Part shown: one piece after another, positions 5,414 to 34,662 of the stretch
Position numbering within the stretch: position 1 is the first letter of the stretch
Layout: the number at the start of each line of letters is the position of its first letter
Sequence record: PV730299.1
Source of the DNA: a phage
Length of the DNA stretch: 64,000 bases
Reading direction: 5' to 3' (one strand)
The notes under the pieces: model-generated
What the model saw: only the letters and a program-made list of their open reading frames with translations
What the model was told of the DNA's origin: nothing
Database searches by the model: none
Position numbers and translations under genes: made by a program

Positions 5414-6256
5414 TTAAATGTCGTACAGATCGTTGACTTCCAGCATCAGGCGGGTGAAGTCGCCGCGCCCGTTGCGGTCAGACTTGTCGAACTCGATGAT
5501 ACTGAACGGCTGAACCCATTCAGGGTACTCATCACCGACGCCAACACCATCGATCTTCAGGGTTCCGGCCTCCAGCTTGGCGTTGAAGTCGCGGAAGGAA
5601 CTGACGTACTTTTCAAGGGCGCTGTCGCGCAGGCGCTTGTTGGACTGTTTGATGTCACCGTTGACAAAGATGTAAGTCGAGTCAGATGCGCGGGTCAGTA
5701 GGTTCTTCAGCTGCTCCATATCACATTCCTGCGCTTCTTCAATGATCAGGAAGGTGTCGTCAAAGGTCATCCCCTTGATGGTCTCCAGATCCTGGATCTC
5801 AATGATCCGCTTCTCCCACAGATAGTTGAAGAAACCGTCGCTACCTGTGTCAGTCTTCAGCACCTTCTTCAGCGTCTGAATCAGGGGCATCAGATATGGC
5901 ATCAGCTTTTCGTATGTGTCGCCAGGGCGGAAGCCTGCAGTCTGGCCTGTTGGCAGCGGAGAGCGCGTGATGACGATCTTACTGACCACTTTATCGATCA
6001 GGAGCTTGGCGGCGGCTGAGGCACCGCAGTACGATTTACCTGTACCGGCAGGACCGATTGCGATAGTGAGGTTTTCTTCAAGAGCAGATTGATATGCGAG
6101 GTTCTGATTCTCTGAGAGGCCATTGAACGGAGCGATTCTGAAGTCACCTTTAGAGAACTTCATCCAGTCATCTTCTTTCTGAATTGTCTCTTTCTTACGT
6201 GCTGACTTGGTCTTGCCCGCTGGCTTCTTACTTACAACTTTGGTGGCAGATTGCAT
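5414..6256 (-). CDS. phoH: PhoH-like ATPase
   Basis: 280 aa; Walker A GPAGTGKS and PhoH-family layout. Confidence 0.9.
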   Translation of the reverse strand: MQSATKVVSKKPAGKTKSARKKETIQKEDDWMKFSKGDFRIAPFNGLSENQNLAYQSALEENLTIAIGPAGTGKSYCGASAAAKLLIDKVVSKIVITRSPLPTGQTAGFRPGDTYEKLMPYLMPLIQTLKKVLKTDTGSDGFFNYLWEKRIIEIQDLETIKGMTFDDTFLIIEEAQECDMEQLKNLLTRASDSTYIFVNGDIKQSNKRLRDSALEKYVSSFRDFNAKLEAGTLKIDGVGVGDEYPEWVQPFSIIEFDKSDRNGRGDFTRLMLEVNDLYDI

Positions 6257-27545: not shown

Positions 27546-27995
27546 TCAGAAACGGGTATCACTGACCGTTCTGTATCGCACACCCTGAAACTGTTTAGCG
27601 AGTTTAACAAATTCCATCGCTGGCAAATCAACTTTGTAGACCTTCATGCGCTGTTTGCCGTCCATGTTCAACGCAGCGACAAATCGGTGAGAACCGTCAA
27701 CAACGTAATTGTCAGAAGACACCCAAACTCGACCCATAGGTTTCTTATTTCTGATGTTCTTCATGATCTTCCAGACCTTCATCTTGTTGATTTCGTTCTG
27801 GGTAAGACGAAGCATTTTGATGGGCACTTGCACAGCATCTATGGACACGCCGTTGTCTTCAAGATATTTGTGAAAATCTTCTTGTTTGTCGGCATCGATT
27901 TGCGGCATAGAAGAACGAGAAAGCCCGAGGTTCCCAACAGGAATCCTCAGGCCGTTAATGATGTTCAACCAGTCAATAAAAGATGTAAGGAACAT
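27546..27995 (-). CDS. ParB-like nuclease domain protein
   Basis: 149 aa; motif YVVDGSHRFVAA matches the ParB/Srx DGxHR box. Confidence 0.55.
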   Translation of the reverse strand: MFLTSFIDWLNIINGLRIPVGNLGLSRSSMPQIDADKQEDFHKYLEDNGVSIDAVQVPIKMLRLTQNEINKMKVWKIMKNIRNKKPMGRVWVSSDNYVVDGSHRFVAALNMDGKQRMKVYKVDLPAMEFVKLAKQFQGVRYRTVSDTRF

Positions 27996-28027
27996 GACAC
28001 ACCTCGGGATATAGGGTTATCCCTTAG

Positions 28028-28186
28028 TTAGCGCATCCATCGATCCTTTCTCTCTTTCTCCTTGCGTTCGCGACGTTTCTGGTCGGATCGGAATAACCAA
28101 TAGAAGAAGTTCCCACCCAAGATGAAAACCACCGCGATTATTACTAGGACACCCTTCACAATTTCCCAAACCAATTCTTTATCCAA
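28028..28186 (-). CDS. small membrane protein (TTG start inferred)
   Basis: Hydrophobic segment VLVIIAVVFILGGNFFYWLF followed by a basic tail; SD GAGGTATAAT then TTG; the track ORF 28028-28219 starts at an upstream TTG overlapping the previous gene. Confidence 0.3.
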   Translation of the reverse strand: MDKELVWEIVKGVLVIIAVVFILGGNFFYWLFRSDQKRRERKEKERKDRWMR

Positions 28187-28187
28187 A

Positions 28188-28475
28188 TTATACCTCGTCT
28201 TCTTCAGGTCCACCGTCAATCAGGATACGAGCGGCGTCGAAAGTTTCCCCGCCCGTGTTCAGCAGCTTGGTCAGATCGTCAAGATATCGGACCGTGCCAA
28301 GATCAGACGACCGCGATATAAACTCCAGCATGCCATACAACGCTGTTTGGAATCGGCTGTTGTCGATATCGTTCTTTATTACCATCAGGCGCAAGATGTT
28401 CTCTGACTGAGTATGGCCAACACACGCCTTGTCTCTGATCATCTCCTTGATAGAACTTCTCTCTGATGGTGTCAT
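28188..28475 (-). CDS. hypothetical protein
   Basis: 95-aa ORF; ATGA start/stop overlap with the upstream gene. Confidence 0.4.
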   Translation of the reverse strand: MTPSERSSIKEMIRDKACVGHTQSENILRLMVIKNDIDNSRFQTALYGMLEFISRSSDLGTVRYLDDLTKLLNTGGETFDAARILIDGGPEEDEV

Positions 28476-28846
28476 AACGTACCCCCGACAGAGATCAAGA
28501 ACTCTTCTTGCATGGTCTTGACCGGGTGGTGGTTGCGGGTTTCGAACATGAAGCCCCAGCCACCGTCGGCGACGTTGCCAAAGGTCTTGACGCCAAAGGA
28601 CTTCGTCCCGTTGGAGCAGGAATAGATGTCCAGGACGTATGGGCTACCCTGATTGTCGATCCCACGATTCACGTCGTCTGATACGCAGCGCTCAATCATC
28701 TTCCCGTTCTTATACAGAACGAGGTCTTGGCCATACGCCTTGAAAGCATAAACACCGTTGGTAGACACTCCGGTGATGACAGGAGGGGCGGAAACAGCAG
28801 CAAAGGAAGCGCCCAGCAGGGCAACAGCGAGGATTAACTTTTTCAT
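28472..28846 (-). CDS. secreted protein of unknown function
   Basis: 124 aa from MKKLILAVALLGASFAAVSA (signal peptide); conserved CTATATC-ATG initiation context. Confidence 0.55.
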   Translation of the reverse strand: MKKLILAVALLGASFAAVSAPPVITGVSTNGVYAFKAYGQDLVLYKNGKMIERCVSDDVNRGIDNQGSPYVLDIYSCSNGTKSFGVKTFGNVADGGWGFMFETRNHHPVKTMQEEFLISVGGTL

Positions 28847-28905
28847 GATATAGTCTCTTGGTTTCAAATAGACGGGGTAATCATACCCCGCCCAAAGTTA
28901 TAGAA

Positions 28906-29145
28906 TTAACTGATGTGCTTCAGAAGAGCGAAGAGGATCACGGCCTTGGCCTTTACCTTTCCTACGATGCCTGTCTCGACATCAACTTCTTCAGCAACCC
29001 ACTCTTTGCCTTTCTTGCTGATGATAACGTCACGACGCTGTGCGTAGACTTCTTTGGTCGCATACACACGGCGGAACCCTTTAGCGCGGAGCAATCCCCA
29101 ATTGCGATCAATCTCTACTGAAGTTTCGACCATTTTGTTCTTCAT
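28906..29145 (-). CDS. hypothetical protein
   Basis: 79-aa ORF downstream of a TTTACT-N17-TATTAT promoter. Confidence 0.5.
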   Translation of the reverse strand: MKNKMVETSVEIDRNWGLLRAKGFRRVYATKEVYAQRRDVIISKKGKEWVAEEVDVETGIVGKVKAKAVILFALLKHIS

Positions 29146-29196
29146 GATATAATCTTACCTTTCAACCCGGTGAACCCATCGTTCGCCAGTTATTGA

Positions 29197-29225
29197 ATAA
29201 TAGGACATTCCTTAGAGGAAGTAAA
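29197..29225 (-). promoter_or_regulatory. sigma70-like early promoter (TTTACT-N17-TATTAT)
   Basis: Minus-strand TTTACTTCCTCTAAGGAATGTCCTATTAT upstream of the 29145 start. Confidence 0.5.
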
Positions 29226-29230
29226 CCCCT

Positions 29231-29262
29231 AAAAGTAAAAATCCCCAACAAAACGTTGGGGA
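29231..29262 (-). terminator. rho-independent terminator
   Basis: Hairpin TCCCCAAC-N5-GTTGGGGA followed by TTTTTACTTTT on the minus-strand transcript, just after the ACP-like gene stop. Confidence 0.65.
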
Positions 29263-29268
29263 CTTCTG

Positions 29269-29592
29269 TTATTTGCGCAGGGCAACCACGAGTTCAGCGA
29301 GTTCACCCATGGTCGGGTCATCGCCTTTACTACCCAGCCAACCGTCGTCGATTTCGACCTGAAACTCTTCTTCTAGTTCCATTACGATTTCGATGGCATC
29401 CAGTTCATCACCGCCGAGGTCTTTCTTGGTACGGAGGCCAGCCAGCTTGTCCAGGGCGTCCTCGTTCTGAGATGCCACGTCGTCCAGCAATTTACGCTTG
29501 TCATCGTCACGCCACAGATCCATATTCAGATTGTCAGTGGCGTACTGAGCCAGATGACGCATGACTTCAACATATGTTGGTTTACTGCTCAT
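29269..29592 (-). CDS. acyl-carrier-protein-like small acidic protein with Glu in place of the carrier serine
   Basis: 107 aa; KKDLGGDELDAIEIVMELEEEFQVEI parallels the ACP helix II region ([20 protein letters not shown]) but the phosphopantetheine-attachment Ser is Glu. Confidence 0.6.
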   Translation of the reverse strand: MSSKPTYVEVMRHLAQYATDNLNMDLWRDDDKRKLLDDVASQNEDALDKLAGLRTKKDLGGDELDAIEIVMELEEEFQVEIDDGWLGSKGDDPTMGELAELVVALRK

Positions 29593-29600
29593 GCTACTTC

Positions 29601-29627
29601 TCCCAAAGAAAGGCGGGTTGCCCCGCC
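29601..29627 (-). terminator. rho-independent terminator
   Basis: Hairpin GGCGGG-N4-CCCGCC followed by TTTCTTTGGG on the minus-strand transcript, after the VWA gene stop. Confidence 0.6.
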
Positions 29628-29634
29628 CGTTGGA

Positions 29635-31878
29635 TTAGATTTTGATTTCTTTCTCTGTCAGTTCGGCAGTGACCTTGTACTTCACGCCATCCACTTCAAC
29701 TTCCATGGTGGACTCTTCCAAGTCGAGGTCGGTGAACCAGCCATGGCCAGCAACGATACCATAAACCACTTTAGACAGCGTCTTGTTCAGGGCACGGACT
29801 TCGGTGATGGCCGCCTTGGCAGCAGCGTCGATCCAGTTTTCGATCAGATGTTTCTGTAAGGCTTCAGGCACGGCAGTGATCATAGGAGACTTCACGAATG
29901 CTTCGTACTCCTTCAGCGCATTGGCGATGAACAAGTCACCAGCATTGAGTTTCTTGTTCTCGGCAATCTTCTTCTGTACCGCTGCGATAGACGGTAGAGA
30001 AGAAGCGCCAGCGATCTTCACGTTCAGCTCACGGCTCATGTAGAAGTCGGTAGACTCTTTGGTCTCAGTCTTCGGTGAGAATCCGTAATCGCGGATGCCG
30101 TAGGAGGACAGGAACTCGGCCGCCTCAGCGCCGTACTGTACTGCCAGGCCTTTGGCGTTACCCTTACCAACCAGGGCGTCTCGATAGAACTTCAGCACCT
30201 TCTGCTTGCCTTTCAGGGCTTCCAGACGGACATTATCCGCAAAGAACTGAGCAGCACTGATGTTCTTGACCATGGCGCGGTTGACCAGTGGTACACTTTC
30301 CAGGTTCAGGACAAACACTTCTGGACCACCAAACACGTGGACACCCATTTCGATCAGCTTATGCACGACTTCGATATCAGCCTTGAACGGCAGAGTCTTC
30401 ACGTTAATGATACCGTCTTTGACGATCGTGTAGTTGCGCCACTGGAAAGTATCCAGTTCTTCAGGCAGGCCGAACTTCTTCTGTGCGAATTCAGGCACAG
30501 CCACAGTACCGTGTTGAATTGTACGCACACTGATGTTCGGGCGCTCGGAGTTATAGACCAAATCGCTGATTGGCACAACACCCAGGTCGTTGGTAGGTTC
30601 GAACGTCGGGTTCCACTCTTCGTGCTCTGCCAGCTTGAGAGCCAGGGCTTTACGCTCTTCTTTGGACTGAGCATTCGCGATCTGTTCTGCCAGCTTGTCT
30701 TCGGTGTCGTCGGTTTTCTGCACAGTACCGCGCCCGATACTCTTATAGGAGAACATCGGATGCTTGGTAGCAACAGGCACACCAGCTTCAGCCAGGTACG
30801 TCAGCACATCAACAACGGTGGTCGCGTCTTCGGCCGGAACCAGGTCATAGTCAATACCGTCAACGCCGCGCAGCTGGTCGTCAACAATCGCCTGAACCAG
30901 ATCGTTCTTGATGTTGGAGTAGTCCTGCTTGGTGAAGCAGTTGCTGTACTGTTTGATGAAGCGAACGTCACCCGTTTTCTTCAGTGCAGCCCACACCAGG
31001 TCCGCGTCCATGATGTGTACGCCGTAGAACGCCAGCACGTATGCCGCCTGGATATCCGTCAGACTATCCATCTGGTCGATCATGTTAGGGTTTACAACCC
31101 ACAGCTTGGTGACGCTCTCAGGGATGCTCACATAGCCGACCGGGTGAGAGTCATCGTCCTGCACCGCCAGTACTGTTGCCACACCGTTTTCGACGTAGAT
31201 GGCATGGGTGTAGATGACTGGGACATCAACTTTCACCTTCGGCACTGATGACTTCAGCACGTTTTCCAGTTCGGTCTGGTATTCGGTCTGACCTTCGGCA
31301 AACACATGAGTCGCGCCAGAGCGCTCGGACATCAGAGCCAGCAGTTCGCGGTTACAGTGCCAGCCGTATTCGATGAAAGTAATGTTATCGAACACAGAAG
31401 GCAAGGTTTCGGCGACGGCCAGGATTTCGTTTGAGCGCCAGCAGTTGTCATAACCATCGGTCATGAATGCCAGGTTGTTGACGTAACCAGGTTTCTTCAG
31501 GTCACGCGCAGTATCCATCGCCAGTTTCAACGGCTCAACGAAGCCAGTACATCCGGACGGTTGCAGGAAGCGATCGATCAGTTTGTTCAGCTCGCTCAGG
31601 TCAGACGCAGCACTAACCTGGCGGCCAGCGAACACAGTACCAAAGTCGCCTTTGGAGGAGAAATACAGAACGCTCACAGTGTCTTCCGGTTTCACCAGGG
31701 AAGGCAGGTTCTCCTTCAGATGCTTACGGACTTCAGGGAGCGCACGGTACATAGAGCCGGAAATGTCTACAACGATTACATGGTTGGACGGGGCAGCAGT
31801 CGCAACCGCATTCTTAAATTCTAATGATTCAATCATTGTTCTCTTCGCCTTGTGCGTAAGGGTTAAGTTCAGACTCAT
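29635..31878 (-). CDS. von Willebrand factor A (VWA) domain protein, function unknown
   Basis: 747 aa; N-terminal VWA with MIDAS motif VIVVDISGSM and downstream T/D residues; long C-terminal region without a recognised family; start could alternatively be the ATG 14 codons in (MIESLEF). Confidence 0.7.
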   Translation of the reverse strand: MSLNLTLTHKAKRTMIESLEFKNAVATAAPSNHVIVVDISGSMYRALPEVRKHLKENLPSLVKPEDTVSVLYFSSKGDFGTVFAGRQVSAASDLSELNKLIDRFLQPSGCTGFVEPLKLAMDTARDLKKPGYVNNLAFMTDGYDNCWRSNEILAVAETLPSVFDNITFIEYGWHCNRELLALMSERSGATHVFAEGQTEYQTELENVLKSSVPKVKVDVPVIYTHAIYVENGVATVLAVQDDDSHPVGYVSIPESVTKLWVVNPNMIDQMDSLTDIQAAYVLAFYGVHIMDADLVWAALKKTGDVRFIKQYSNCFTKQDYSNIKNDLVQAIVDDQLRGVDGIDYDLVPAEDATTVVDVLTYLAEAGVPVATKHPMFSYKSIGRGTVQKTDDTEDKLAEQIANAQSKEERKALALKLAEHEEWNPTFEPTNDLGVVPISDLVYNSERPNISVRTIQHGTVAVPEFAQKKFGLPEELDTFQWRNYTIVKDGIINVKTLPFKADIEVVHKLIEMGVHVFGGPEVFVLNLESVPLVNRAMVKNISAAQFFADNVRLEALKGKQKVLKFYRDALVGKGNAKGLAVQYGAEAAEFLSSYGIRDYGFSPKTETKESTDFYMSRELNVKIAGASSLPSIAAVQKKIAENKKLNAGDLFIANALKEYEAFVKSPMITAVPEALQKHLIENWIDAAAKAAITEVRALNKTLSKVVYGIVAGHGWFTDLDLEESTMEVEVDGVKYKVTAELTEKEIKI

Positions 31879-32044
31879 CAGCGGCTTCGATGCGCGTCTT
31901 TACAGAGTCCAGCATATTGTTGATAAATTCACGAGACTGCTCCAGCTGAGCCAAGAGCACATCCTTTGGAGCATAGTTCTGAATGCAAGCCGGAATACTT
32001 TCAGACGTCGCCTTCAGGTCGGTAAAACATTCTTTCAGTATCAT
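31829..32044 (-). CDS. hypothetical small protein
   Basis: 71-aa ORF between the NadV-like terminator and the VWA gene; weak SD. Confidence 0.3.
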   Translation of the reverse strand: MILKECFTDLKATSESIPACIQNYAPKDVLLAQLEQSREFINNMLDSVKTRIEAADESELNPYAQGEENND

Positions 32045-32110
32045 TTGATCTCACTTAACAGAGACGAAGCCCTGTTGGGATTTAATAGCGGTCTTCACAG
32101 ACATCAGGTT

Positions 32111-32138
32111 TCCCTCAAAACAGGGGAGTCTCCTCCCC
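32111..32138 (-). terminator. rho-independent terminator downstream of the NadV-like gene
   Basis: Hairpin GGGGAG-N4-CTCCCC followed by TGTTTTGAGGG on the minus-strand transcript. Confidence 0.6.
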
Positions 32139-32146
32139 TTCGGTTA

Positions 32147-33811
32147 TCAGATTTGTGAGGCCAGTTCTGTCACCAGAGGAGCGGCACGAACACGCGCATC
32201 TTCCAGTGTTTGAGTATTGAAGAACTCGCCATCACGATACACCAGCTGGTGCTGGTTGTCGGCGTCTTGCACCTGATCAAAGGTGATACCGTCAACCAAC
32301 ACTAGTTTACCCTGAGAGTCTTTAATGACTTTAAGGAAACCACGCGCAGACTTTTTAGTCCCGCCTTTATCGGTCTTCGGCTCTTTGAAGATCTCACGGA
32401 ATTCGCCGTTCACTTTACCAGCCGTGGCTTTCACCGCCGTGCCAGTACTGTCACGGGTGTTCATCTGGTAGGTGTAGGAACCGATACCGAACACCACGTT
32501 GATGGAAGCGAAGTTCCGGTCAGCCAGACGGCTAAAGATCTGGTCTTCACGCGACAGGGTGATAGAATCACCGTAGATCAGGCCGATGTGCTCATCCAAC
32601 AGGAAGTGCCCAGTTTCAGTCTGGGTGCCACCAAAGATCTCCCACAGGCGCTGGATAGAGCCGACCGCTTCTGAACGGCTGATGATATTACGGTCATCTG
32701 CCATCAGAGAGTTGATCGTGCCTTCGCCTGTAATCAGGTGGTAGGTGTTCGTCTCTTCGATGTGAATAACTTCTGTGTCGCTAGACACACCGCTAATGTT
32801 CAGCGTGGCACGGTCTTTGAACCCCTCGATGCGGTAGCCGCCAACAATGTGTACAGGGTCGCCCGAGTCGGGGCGGATCACGACTTTACCATTGCGCGCC
32901 ATGATAATGTCTTTCAGGCGAGGGAGATAGTCGTCGATGACCTGCCAGTAATCCCATGCATCAGACACGATGCTGACGGTGCCATCAGGATACACGTCCT
33001 GCACCAGGCGGCGGAAGGTTTCGAATTCGCCATCCTTCGTGCCCATACACATCACGGCGTGTTCGGTAGCCGCAACAGAACCAGCAACGACATAATCTTC
33101 GTCGATGTCTGCGCCATAATACTCTTCTACGAAGTCTAGGGCAGGGTTGGTATCGGTGCCTTTGAAGAACACCAGATGACCGGAACCGGAAGACGCCGCG
33201 TCATGCCACCCGCTCATACCACGGAAGGAGAAGTCGTGGCCTTGGTAGTCGATGAACCAATGGTCCGGCGACACGCCTGTAGCGAGGGCAGCTTTCACCA
33301 TCAGTGCCTTGTAATGCAGAGCTATGGTGGCGTTCGTCATCGGCTTCCATATCTCAGAGCTGAACACGGTCTCCAGATAGTTGGTCAGCCAGTAGAACTC
33401 CGGCAGGGTATTGAACATCACATACACCGGAACGCCATACGGGCACATGGTGCCTTCAGGCAGCGCACGGACTTCGATAGGAAGGTAGCCGAGGTCATGC
33501 AGGGCTTCAATATGCTCTGTGCCGACGCGGCCTGGACCCAGGACTTTGTTCATGCGACGGGCATACTTCTTCAGCACCTTGGCCTTCGGGCACTGGAAGA
33601 ATGCTTCGTCAAACAGTTCGTGGAACCAGGTCATGAAGCCCTGGATGCCCCAGACCACCACTCCGTTCTTCGGCAGGTGAGAGTTGAACAGTTTGTTAGA
33701 GCGCGGAGTTCCGTTGGAGAACACCAGCTCACTGCCTTCAGGGAACTGATAGATGTGCCCCGATTTGTAGAAGTCGATTGCATGGATTGGGTCTAAGTGG
33801 CGCATGCTCAT
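32147..33811 (-). CDS. nadV: nicotinamide phosphoribosyltransferase family protein (NadV/Nampt-like; candidate Namat of a NARP1 module)
   Basis: 554 aa with overall Nampt/NadV-like character; start overlaps the stop of the Prs-like gene (ATGA). Confidence 0.85.
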   Translation of the reverse strand: MSMRHLDPIHAIDFYKSGHIYQFPEGSELVFSNGTPRSNKLFNSHLPKNGVVVWGIQGFMTWFHELFDEAFFQCPKAKVLKKYARRMNKVLGPGRVGTEHIEALHDLGYLPIEVRALPEGTMCPYGVPVYVMFNTLPEFYWLTNYLETVFSSEIWKPMTNATIALHYKALMVKAALATGVSPDHWFIDYQGHDFSFRGMSGWHDAASSGSGHLVFFKGTDTNPALDFVEEYYGADIDEDYVVAGSVAATEHAVMCMGTKDGEFETFRRLVQDVYPDGTVSIVSDAWDYWQVIDDYLPRLKDIIMARNGKVVIRPDSGDPVHIVGGYRIEGFKDRATLNISGVSSDTEVIHIEETNTYHLITGEGTINSLMADDRNIISRSEAVGSIQRLWEIFGGTQTETGHFLLDEHIGLIYGDSITLSREDQIFSRLADRNFASINVVFGIGSYTYQMNTRDSTGTAVKATAGKVNGEFREIFKEPKTDKGGTKKSARGFLKVIKDSQGKLVLVDGITFDQVQDADNQHQLVYRDGEFFNTQTLEDARVRAAPLVTELASQI

Positions 33812-34662
33812 TTTACACGTCCTGTATTTTCAGTTTTGAAAGGAAGCCCGTCGGCGGTGATGTTCTCCCACCAGACAGTGTCGGCATACACAGCATCATA
33901 GATCCCGTCGAAAACAGAGAGACCTTTGCTGAAGATGCCATGGGTAACGAAGAGTGTCATGTGCTTAGGCTTGTGCTTCTGAAGCTCTTTGCCTAACTCA
34001 ACGAAAGTGCGCCCGCCGTCGCAGATATCATCAACCACAACCAGATAGCGGTCTTTGATCAGTTCAGGGTTCGTAATACTCACCCCAATGATCTCACCAG
34101 TCTTGGTGTCACGGTTCTTGTGACCGTAGACAATAGGAACACCGTCCAACGACAGGCTGAGGGCTTCGGTCTTCTTAGCCGCGCCGCCGTCAGGGGCCAC
34201 CAACACAGCGTTGTTCCCACGGATGAACCAACCCAGATACTGACGCACGATGTAATCTTGCGGGACAACATGGACGTTGTTGATCAGAGAAGACACAACA
34301 TGGCTGTGAGGATCTTTGATCGCCACGCGGTCAAAGTTCATGCTATTGATGAACTCAGCCGCCCACTTCACAGACAGAGGCTCACCGAAGTCACAATGGC
34401 GGTCCTGGCGAGCATACGGGAAATAAGGGATATACGCATGGAATGTCGTCAGACGGTCCACGTTACCCAGACCACGAACGGCGTTTACCAGAAGCGCCAG
34501 CTCAATGAAGTCAGCCGATGATTTGATGTGAGCATCAATCACCACGTTCTGAACGTGGCCGATAGGGATACCAGACTTTTGAATCTTGATATGTTCCTCA
34601 CCACCTGGGAAGGTGAAGTGTTTGTAGAACACATCTTGGTCGTTCAATTTCAAACGAAACAT
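33808..34662 (-). CDS. prs: ribose-phosphate pyrophosphokinase family protein (Prs-like; candidate Adps of a NARP1 module)
   Basis: 284 aa; IPYFPYARQDR and VVDDICDGGRT match the Prs motifs IPYFGYARQDR and LVDDMIDTGGT, but the protein is shorter and more divergent than housekeeping Prs. Confidence 0.85.
   Translation of the reverse strand: MFRLKLNDQDVFYKHFTFPGGEEHIKIQKSGIPIGHVQNVVIDAHIKSSADFIELALLVNAVRGLGNVDRLTTFHAYIPYFPYARQDRHCDFGEPLSVKWAAEFINSMNFDRVAIKDPHSHVVSSLINNVHVVPQDYIVRQYLGWFIRGNNAVLVAPDGGAAKKTEALSLSLDGVPIVYGHKNRDTKTGEIIGVSITNPELIKDRYLVVVDDICDGGRTFVELGKELQKHKPKHMTLFVTHGIFSKGLSVFDGIYDAVYADTVWWENITADGLPFKTENTGRVK

Follow-up and report, generated by a model that had tools for sequence, protein, structure and literature searches.

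A phage acyl carrier protein homologue with glutamate at the phosphopantetheine serine site: a candidate decoy for host ACP-binding proteins

What would a virulent phage gain from an acyl carrier protein (ACP) homologue that lacks the one residue needed to carry anything? The question is raised by a small gene at 29269..29592 on the minus strand of the window, by which we mean the whole 64,000-nucleotide stretch of sequence record PV730299.1 analysed here, part of an Ackermannviridae (ViI/Kuttervirus-like) phage of E. coli. The gene encodes a 107-aa protein with an isoelectric point (pI) of 4.26, in which 27 Asp and Glu residues stand against 13 Lys and Arg for a net charge of about -14. Region 28000-32000 shares 97.6% identity with Escherichia phage LHE287; 272 phage records match it, the majority belonging to phages of Salmonella, Klebsiella, Escherichia and Dickeya, and there is one ACP-like locus per phage genome. 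GenBank and other databases label this phage protein "acyl carrier protein" or file it as an auxiliary metabolic gene, and it is a member of phrog_4154 ("acyl carrier protein") at E 2.4e-57. Several hundred sequenced ViI-like phages carry the gene, and some of these are candidates for therapy or biocontrol (against Salmonella, E. coli O157, Klebsiella and Dickeya); both names would be misleading if the protein can carry nothing. The parts of the gene on which the argument turns are the following.

29269..29592, minus strand: coding sequence of the 107-aa protein of predicted ACP fold, stop codon included (ORF list, ATG start)
29404..29406, minus strand: codon GAA for Glu63, at the position of the phosphopantetheine serine, S36 of AcpP (HMMER and BLASTP alignments, sequence)
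29344..29427, minus strand: residues 56-83, ACP helix II (the "recognition helix") and the next loop, KKDLGGDELDAIEIVMELEEEFQVEIDD, 63% identical to E. coli AcpP
29290..29340, minus strand: residues 85-101, motif W-x-G-x3-DDPT-x-GE in place of helix III and loop 2 (family alignment)
29443..29523, minus strand: residues ~24-50, a variable loop 1 insertion of ~25 residues, absent from short relatives and from canonical ACPs

The relationship to ACPs was apparent in both sequence and structure comparisons. The Pfam family PP-binding (PF00550) matched residues 58-101 with 26.0 bits against a gathering score of 20.8 (E 1.1e-5), the TIGR00517 model matched at E 1.3e-8, and PP-binding_2 (PF14573, specialised ACPs) reached 25.2 bits, under its gathering threshold of 32. 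When a profile built from 18 family members was searched against all PDB sequences, it retrieved ACPs only, the best being B. subtilis ACP 1HY8 (E 2.3e-8), and BLASTP aligned residues 57-83 with E. coli AcpP at 17 identities in 27 positions (63%). The ACP helices were present in the AlphaFold2 (AF2) model (pLDDT 79.5, pTM 0.70), and the top 26 Foldseek matches in the PDB were all carrier proteins, 25 of them ACPs and one a peptidyl carrier protein, with target-normalised TM scores of 0.38-0.68 and probabilities up to 0.94. In BFVD the model matched a ViI "ACP" (TM 0.87), followed by other phage ACPs. The fold is predicted to be the four-helix core of an ACP, and the resemblance to ACPs, judged on alignments and model together, is well above chance. 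An acidic 107-aa protein and a close match to ACP helix II had both been put forward in a preliminary description of this locus, and both were borne out; structure prediction, which it had proposed as a check, returned an ACP-like model, and the worry that the match might be spurious is countered by a Pfam score above threshold and by a family profile that finds nothing but ACPs in the PDB.

Glu63 was aligned with the modified serine both in the HMMER alignment to B. subtilis ACP and in the BLASTP alignment to E. coli AcpP, confirming the Ser-to-Glu change noted in the preliminary description. From 5.8 billion proteins we recovered 41 homologues, 40 of which cover the serine site, and all 40 read LGGD[E/D]LD. 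The codon at this site in 20 distinct Ackermannviridae genes was either GAA (12) or GAT (8), and a divergent 88-aa version in Miltonvirus reads FDELD. The family alignment was also scanned for a conserved Ser, Thr or Cys that might serve as an alternative modification site: no Ser was conserved, and the protein here has no Cys. The sole invariant hydroxyl residue, T94, belongs to a T-x-x-E motif located where AF2 predicts the last helix (95-105) to begin, and we take it to be a helix N-cap. Modification on another residue was rejected on these grounds. Because the serine is replaced by the carboxylate residue Glu or Asp, the protein, as far as its sequence can tell, cannot become holo-ACP or carry an acyl chain. 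The earlier argument that it is not a true carrier holds across all the homologues that cover the site and all 20 Ackermannviridae genes, and the other serine that had been allowed for as a carrier site has no conserved counterpart in the family.

The loss of the reactive residue is set in a surface that has otherwise been retained. Helix II is the ACP surface at which AcpS, enzymes of fatty-acid and lipid synthesis, and the moonlighting partners SpoT, MukB and IscS dock. In this region L59, G60, G61, D62, L64, D65, I67, E68, E74, E76 and D83 were invariant in the family, and M71, E75 and I81 nearly so. With the numbering offset applied (AcpP n = phage n+27), the invariant D62, E68 and E74 and the nearly invariant E75 correspond to AcpP D35, E41, E47 and E48, which form ion pairs with AcpS and whose neutralisation stops modification in vivo (bioRxiv 10.1101/2025.01.28.635281). 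Likewise, V70, M71, F77 and I81 correspond to AcpP V43, M44, F50 and I54, mutations of which abolish binding to SpoT, MukB, FabZ/FabA or PlsX (PMC3340395). The alignments indicate that the ACP docking face is kept and that the reactive residue is removed. Two further regions are peculiar to the family. In residues 85-101, W85, G87, D91, D92, P93, T94, G96, E97 and A99 were invariant, and the DDP(T/S) motif at their centre is common to the short Glu-type relatives P0052, P0054 and P0057 and absent from Ser-type ACPs. The loop 1 insertion, in which AF2 predicts two extra short helices (30-40 and 44-51), shows the lowest conservation in the family.

The gene has been kept intact as it diverged. 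The median dN/dS was 0.13 (127 pairs with dS > 0.1), the family alignment held 30 invariant positions, and the full-length homologues recovered, from several genera, were all intact at about 104-110 aa. In addition, one peptide of a homologue has been detected by mass spectrometry in preparations of phage Sajous1. On this codon-level record the gene is maintained under purifying selection and is not a decaying pseudogene.

Is the loss of the serine peculiar to Ackermannviridae? When a profile was searched against 1.84 billion representative proteins, the closer relatives (P0042-P0047, P0050, P0052, P0054 and P0057) all read D[E/D]LD, most of them with DDP(T/S), and Ser-type ACPs appeared only from about E 4e-11. 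We also scanned IMG/VR with the motif D-x-L-D-x-[IV]-E-x-x-M-x-L-E, x being fixed at the serine position, and counted lineages from ORF analysis, with the following outcome.

Ser at the site (TCN codons only): at least 120 stretches matched
Glu at the site: 29 stretches, namely 13 Ackermannviridae contigs and ~15 other lineages
Asp at the site: 10 stretches, ~6 lineages
Ala at the site: 20 stretches, ~2 lineages
Gln at the site: 3 stretches, ~2 lineages
Thr at the site: 2 stretches, 1-2 lineages

Serine-less homologues of these five kinds were thus found in ~25 viral-contig lineages besides Ackermannviridae, mostly as canonical-length ACPs of 77-100 aa (loci L025, L030, L031, L033-L036, L171, L174 and L188-L224). 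In local BLAST the best neighbours of these proteins were Ser-type ACPs and not each other. The clearest case is P0190 (L031; IMGVR_UViG_3300035660_000002, 5977..6210), which has Glu at the site, is 65-68% identical to Omnitrophota AcpPs, and has nearest relatives with Ser in 118 of 118 cases; its contig is viral, 133 kb long, with SbcC-like, endonuclease VII and terminase-like genes. P0190 looks like a host acpP that was captured recently and disabled by a single change. A more distant variant was seen in the jumbo Asteriusvirus Escherichia phage BAU.Micro_ELP-22 (L003, 2246..2665), where a 140-aa protein whose C-terminal half resembles ACP helix II, FDWLDWLEMVMELEEKF, has Trp at the serine position. 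Since the nearest relatives are Ser-type, and the kin of P0190 all keep Ser, loss of the carrier serine in phage ACP homologues appears to be recurrent and apparently independent. Across the viral sequences aligned here, acidic residues at the site are strongly, not absolutely, preferred. Finding the Ala, Gln and Thr variants led us to drop the idea that every phage lineage needs a carboxylate here; it holds within Ackermannviridae.

Taken as a whole, the data fit best with an unloadable ACP surrogate, a pseudo-substrate or competitive decoy that would bind host proteins docking AcpP through helix II. We consider this the most likely explanation and give it about an even chance of being right; the binding to host ACP partners, the identity of those partners and the benefit to the phage we infer from the sequence comparisons and the predicted fold. 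Such a decoy would act purely by protein-protein binding during the early or middle phase of infection, when it would occupy at least one host ACP-binding protein. A carboxylate at position 63 would prevent modification, and it could in addition take the place of the negatively charged Ser-phosphodiester, which is contacted by Arg or Lys of the partner, for example Isd11 Arg6 in the ACP-Isd11 complex (PMC8547962). The preliminary description had spoken of a mimic or decoy with no carrier role. The second half of that proposal stands, and the first half fits the predicted fold, the docking residues, the selection and the recurrence, which make a decoy plausible.

Several observations weigh against a decoy. 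The similarity to AcpP is limited to ~30 residues, and the NCBIfam AcpP equivalogs (TIGR00517 / NF002149) give at best 34.6 bits, far under the cutoff of 70.45, in a match that covers residues 54-83 only. The confidence of the AF2 model is moderate and the Foldseek E-values are weak (0.13 or worse), the latter because the domain is small (~80 residues). The loop 1 insertion and the W-G-DDPT motif could alter or block the binding of canonical partners. Within one related viral clade the site varies between Asp, Gln and Ala, an argument that "not Ser" matters more than "acidic", and the preference for Glu or Asp could merely reflect tolerance at the N-terminus of a helix. Finally, the constant presence of a gene for a vWA-domain protein next to the ACP-like gene leaves a partner encoded by the phage itself possible.

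A wider generalisation can be drawn from the same data, which we offer tentatively and regard as rather doubtful: that non-modifiable ACP mimics form a widespread, convergent class of phage host-manipulation proteins. Under this proposal, acpP-like genes would have been captured repeatedly and their serine mutated, mostly to Glu or Asp; the products, as dead-end pseudo-substrates or decoys, would titrate a host ACP-binding hub (for example AcpS, PlsB, Lpx enzymes, SpoT, MukB or IscS), and among them the protein of Ackermannviridae would have the greatest age and elaboration. If this were true, lipid synthesis, the stringent response or chromosome maintenance would be shut down or rewired during infection, or an ACP-dependent host process disarmed.

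How the gene is expressed, and in what company, bears on what it may do. The elements surrounding it are listed here.

29597..29604, minus strand: ribosome-binding site GGGAGAAG, 4 nt 5' of the ATG (sequence; phage Maynard annotates a ribosome-binding site at the same place)
29611..29628, minus strand: G+C-rich hairpin with a weak U-tract, UUUCUUU, behind it, lying between the vWA stop codon and the ACP-like gene (terminator scan; RNAfold -18.3 kcal/mol)
29231..29262, minus strand: terminator-like hairpin UCCCCAAC-GUUUU-GUUGGGGA followed by UUUUUACUUUU, starting 6 nt past the stop codon (RNAfold -18.4 kcal/mol)
29197..29225, minus strand: sigma-70-like site TTTACT-17-TATTAT (promoter scan, 9 of 12 matches)
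29635..31878, minus strand: 5' neighbour, encoding a 747-aa protein with an N-terminal vWA domain (MIDAS motif DxSxS; Pfam VWA, E 1.4e-6)

The hairpins on either side of the gene agree with the terminators that the preliminary description had placed there. The upstream hairpin was kept in all 19 related loci (L006-L024), is annotated as a terminator in Maynard, and shows a compensatory G-C/C-G swap across genera (GGCGGGG/CCCGCC versus GCCGGGG/CCCGGC). This swap suggests that the RNA structure is under selection, for instance as a terminator that attenuates transcription or as an element in RNA processing or stability, and we read the hairpin as a leaky terminator or an RNA-stability element. 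Only 18 nt separate it from the ATG, and these hold the ribosome-binding site GGGAGAAG. The downstream terminator, with its stem at 29242..29262 and a T-run at 29231..29241, was kept in about 15 of the 19 related loci folded (including L006-L016, L018, L023 and L024) and was absent in L017 and L019-L022; the terminator scan lists its palindrome on the plus strand. An early-type promoter in front of the gene, also proposed earlier, did not survive: the only same-strand sigma-70-like site, at 29225..29197, lies 3' of the ACP-like gene and its terminator and faces the next ORF (28906..29145). This site is probably what had been taken for a promoter "preceding" the gene, which it does only in plus-strand coordinates. 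The promoter scan found no sigma-70-like site on the minus strand from 29593 to 32300, and the number of such sites in the region was not above the shuffled expectation. Further upstream, a terminator-like hairpin lies 3' of a NAMPT-like gene (~32110-32140), with no convincing -35/-10 pair after it. The motif CTAAATAYC, which resembles the phage-specific (late) promoter motif reported for ViI/LIMEstone-like phages, occurred five times in the window (15121, 15708, 46600, 49797 and 61792, all minus strand) where 0.57 were expected from shuffles, and none was within 13 kb of the ACP-like gene. An early or late promoter directly upstream was rejected given the lack of a sigma-70-like site and of a near CTAAATAYC, and read-through of transcription that starts in the vWA unit probably accounts for expression of the gene. 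The best sigma-70-like match of the region was on the plus strand (29126..29153, TCGACC-16-TATAAT, 10 of 12, extended -10 TG); it is directed into the ACP-like gene in antisense orientation and could be due to chance or mark an antisense transcript.

Almost all genes in the window lie on the minus strand, and the vWA gene was directly upstream in all Ackermannviridae loci examined; in Miltonvirus, whose vWA protein is 56% identical, it is three ORFs upstream. The vWA and ACP-like genes are probably co-transcribed. A read-through fusion of the two proteins was considered, as they are in frame here, with 15 codons between the vWA stop and the ACP ATG and no further stop, and was rejected because the frame is not conserved and related loci vary (vWA end at 5953-5956 versus ATG at 6001). 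The vWA protein itself (phrog_2426) has more than 200 homologues far beyond Ackermannviridae, including in Pantoea phage Phynn and a Novimethylophilus genomic contig, and neither Pfam nor the PDB sequences offer a match to its C-terminal ~550 residues; the protein is widespread among large phages. Homologues without an ACP-like gene within 4-6 kb were found in Shewanella phage Thanatos-1, Vibrio phage VmeM-32, Yersinia phage JC221 and a Paraburkholderia genomic contig. Conversely, the Glu-type ACP genes of other phages had no vWA gene beside them and no constant neighbour, those seen nearby encoding RmlD-like, Toprim, dUTPase, SPL-like and HD proteins.

Small unknown ORFs lie 3' of the gene. 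In phage Maynard, with the same gene order, the locus belongs to a replication and host-takeover row with helicase, RNase H, clamp loader, RegA and MazG. Among the 10 flanking ORFs scanned there were no genes for fatty acid synthase (FAS), polyketide synthase, nonribosomal peptide synthetase, ligase or phosphopantetheinyl transferase (PPTase), nor was any LYR-type gene among them; a tblastn search of limited sensitivity for E. coli AcpS gave no Ackermannviridae match at E<=0.01. PADLOC, run for defence and anti-defence systems, returned no match.

Other genes nearby deserve mention in their own right. Genes for a NAMPT-family protein (554 aa, 32147..33811, minus strand) and a PRPP-synthetase-family protein (284 aa, 33808..34662, minus strand) overlap by 4 nt, and PHROG 12872 covers both proteins, as if they were fused in some phages. 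We take this pair to resemble NARP1, the NAD+ reconstitution pathway of an ADPR-pyrophosphokinase and a nicotinamide ADPR-transferase that counters NAD-depleting defence. A 149-aa protein (27546..27995, minus strand) has a ParB/sulfiredoxin-like DGSHR motif and matches only the middle (316-467) of the 740-position profile phrog_2859. In the related record vB_CECAV_050, a feature named "RNA polymerase ADP-ribosylase" lies somewhere under the match to window positions 28000-32000.

This context gives the strongest argument for a different reading, in which the protein serves a complex encoded by the phage, as subunit or adaptor, the vWA protein being its most obvious partner. MIDAS sites bind ligand carboxylates, and the DxSxS site of the vWA protein could be completed by an acidic residue of the ACP-like protein, possibly Glu/Asp63. 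The two genes are adjacent at every Ackermannviridae locus examined and near each other even in the divergent Miltonvirus, only a conserved hairpin stands between them, and the Ser-less ACP of Plasmodium provides a precedent for a scaffold subunit. An obligatory vWA partnership was nevertheless downgraded to a rival explanation, and we consider a phage complex of this kind unlikely, since distant phages and the Paraburkholderia contig have vWA homologues with no ACP-like gene nearby, Glu-type ACPs of other phages have neither a vWA gene nor any constant neighbour, and synteny inside one virus family is weak evidence of interaction. The marked acidity of the protein raises another possibility, that of a generic polyanionic inhibitor or nucleic-acid mimic like Ocr, Arn or T7 Gp5.9, for which the ACP fold would be an acidic scaffold only and ACP partners would play no part. 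A pI of 4.26 and a net charge of about -14 over 107 residues would suit such a role, as would a small protein in a replication and host-takeover row near the NAD-salvage pair, and there is documented precedent for phage DNA mimics acting on host complexes, MukBEF among them (PMC7617805). Housekeeping AcpP, however, is equally acidic (pI 4.05), so that the acidity is inherited and not a special adaptation, and an acidic surface does not discriminate between the two explanations. Conservation is moreover centred on the ACP docking residues and on the hydrophobic V70, M71, F77 and I81 and not on charge alone, and PADLOC gave no match. We know of no DNA mimic with an ACP fold, and overall we find this explanation improbable, more so than a phage complex.

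Two explanations remain, and both seem to us extremely improbable. The protein could still be a carrier, loaded unconventionally on another residue or on the Glu/Asp carboxylate itself, as a PP-binding score above threshold, the database name and an invariant T94 might suggest. The family has no conserved Ser and the protein here no Cys, T94, read as a helix N-cap, is far from the helix II N-terminus that PPTases recognise, and neither a PPTase, ligase or acyltransferase among the flanking ORFs scanned nor an AcpS-like gene by tblastn turned up to load it; elsewhere among viral lineages the site holds Ala or Gln, neither of which can be esterified. Equally hard to credit is a relic, a captured host acpP that is decaying and no longer has a function. 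Loss of the catalytic serine and the variability of the loop 1 region would be expected of one, but a median dN/dS of 0.13 with saturated dS, an open reading frame intact across several genera with its 30 invariant positions, and a ribosome-binding site and terminator of its own are not.

If a decoy is what the protein is, its possible reach is wide. ACP is among the most connected of bacterial proteins, serving every step of fatty-acid, phospholipid, lipid A, lipoate and biotin synthesis and binding SpoT, MukB and IscS. An unloadable virus-encoded ACP would offer a simple way to interfere with any of these processes, and it would lend itself naturally to asking which ACP interaction is limiting for the growth of a phage. 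The recurrent loss of the serine, including in a near copy of a bacterial AcpP, makes a single oddity into a testable general hypothesis.

Among known systems, the bacterial type II ACP, AcpP, is like the phage protein in its predicted four-helix fold, a pI of about 4, helix II and the docking residues. It differs in that the phage protein has Glu or Asp for the serine of the DSL motif, an insertion in loop 1 and the W-G-DDPT motif instead of helix III; the phage gene has no FAS or PPTase neighbours among the ORFs scanned, and its product scores under the NCBIfam AcpP cutoffs. By the alignments, the phage protein descends from ACP yet lacks the residue that defines one, the DSL serine. Keating, Carey and Cronan reportedly found in 1995 that overproduced, unmodified apo-ACP is a potent inhibitor of E. 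coli growth, and this would be the physiological effect that a phage decoy exploits. The E. coli variant AcpP(S36T) is non-functional (PMC3340395). Apo-ACP and AcpP(S36T) resemble the phage protein in being ACPs without phosphopantetheine; they are laboratory situations involving the host's own protein, whereas the phage protein is divergent and naturally selected.

The other phage "acyl carrier proteins" (PHROG 4154 and 5934), discussed as auxiliary metabolic genes or in host takeover, share phrog_4154 with the protein described here, and among viral-contig ACPs the serine is kept at no fewer than the 120 loci matched in IMG/VR and lacking in the Ackermannviridae family and the ~25 other lineages. 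The function of phage ACP homologues has been stated to be unclear (PMC5463345), and we found no description of the missing serine, of a function or of a decoy role for these phage ACPs in the literature searched (subscription journals not covered). One study found Ser-less ACPs only in Apicomplexa and Vitrella (PMC8547962), and the phage cases extend them well beyond the apicomplexan mitochondrion. In the mitochondrial ACP (mACP) of Plasmodium falciparum the serine is changed to Phe, and the protein binds Isd11-Nfs1 and is essential purely as a binding partner (PMC8547962). Like the phage protein, it is an ACP homologue that has lost the modified serine and is retained under selection; unlike it, mACP is eukaryotic and organellar, with a Phe that packs into the LYR-protein interface, whereas the phage protein has a carboxylate and belongs to a virulent phage. 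By analogy, the apicomplexan Ser-to-Phe mitochondrial ACP is the closest functional analogue, and an ACP-fold protein without its carrier site can now be seen, from the viral sequences compared here, as a recurrent phage theme.

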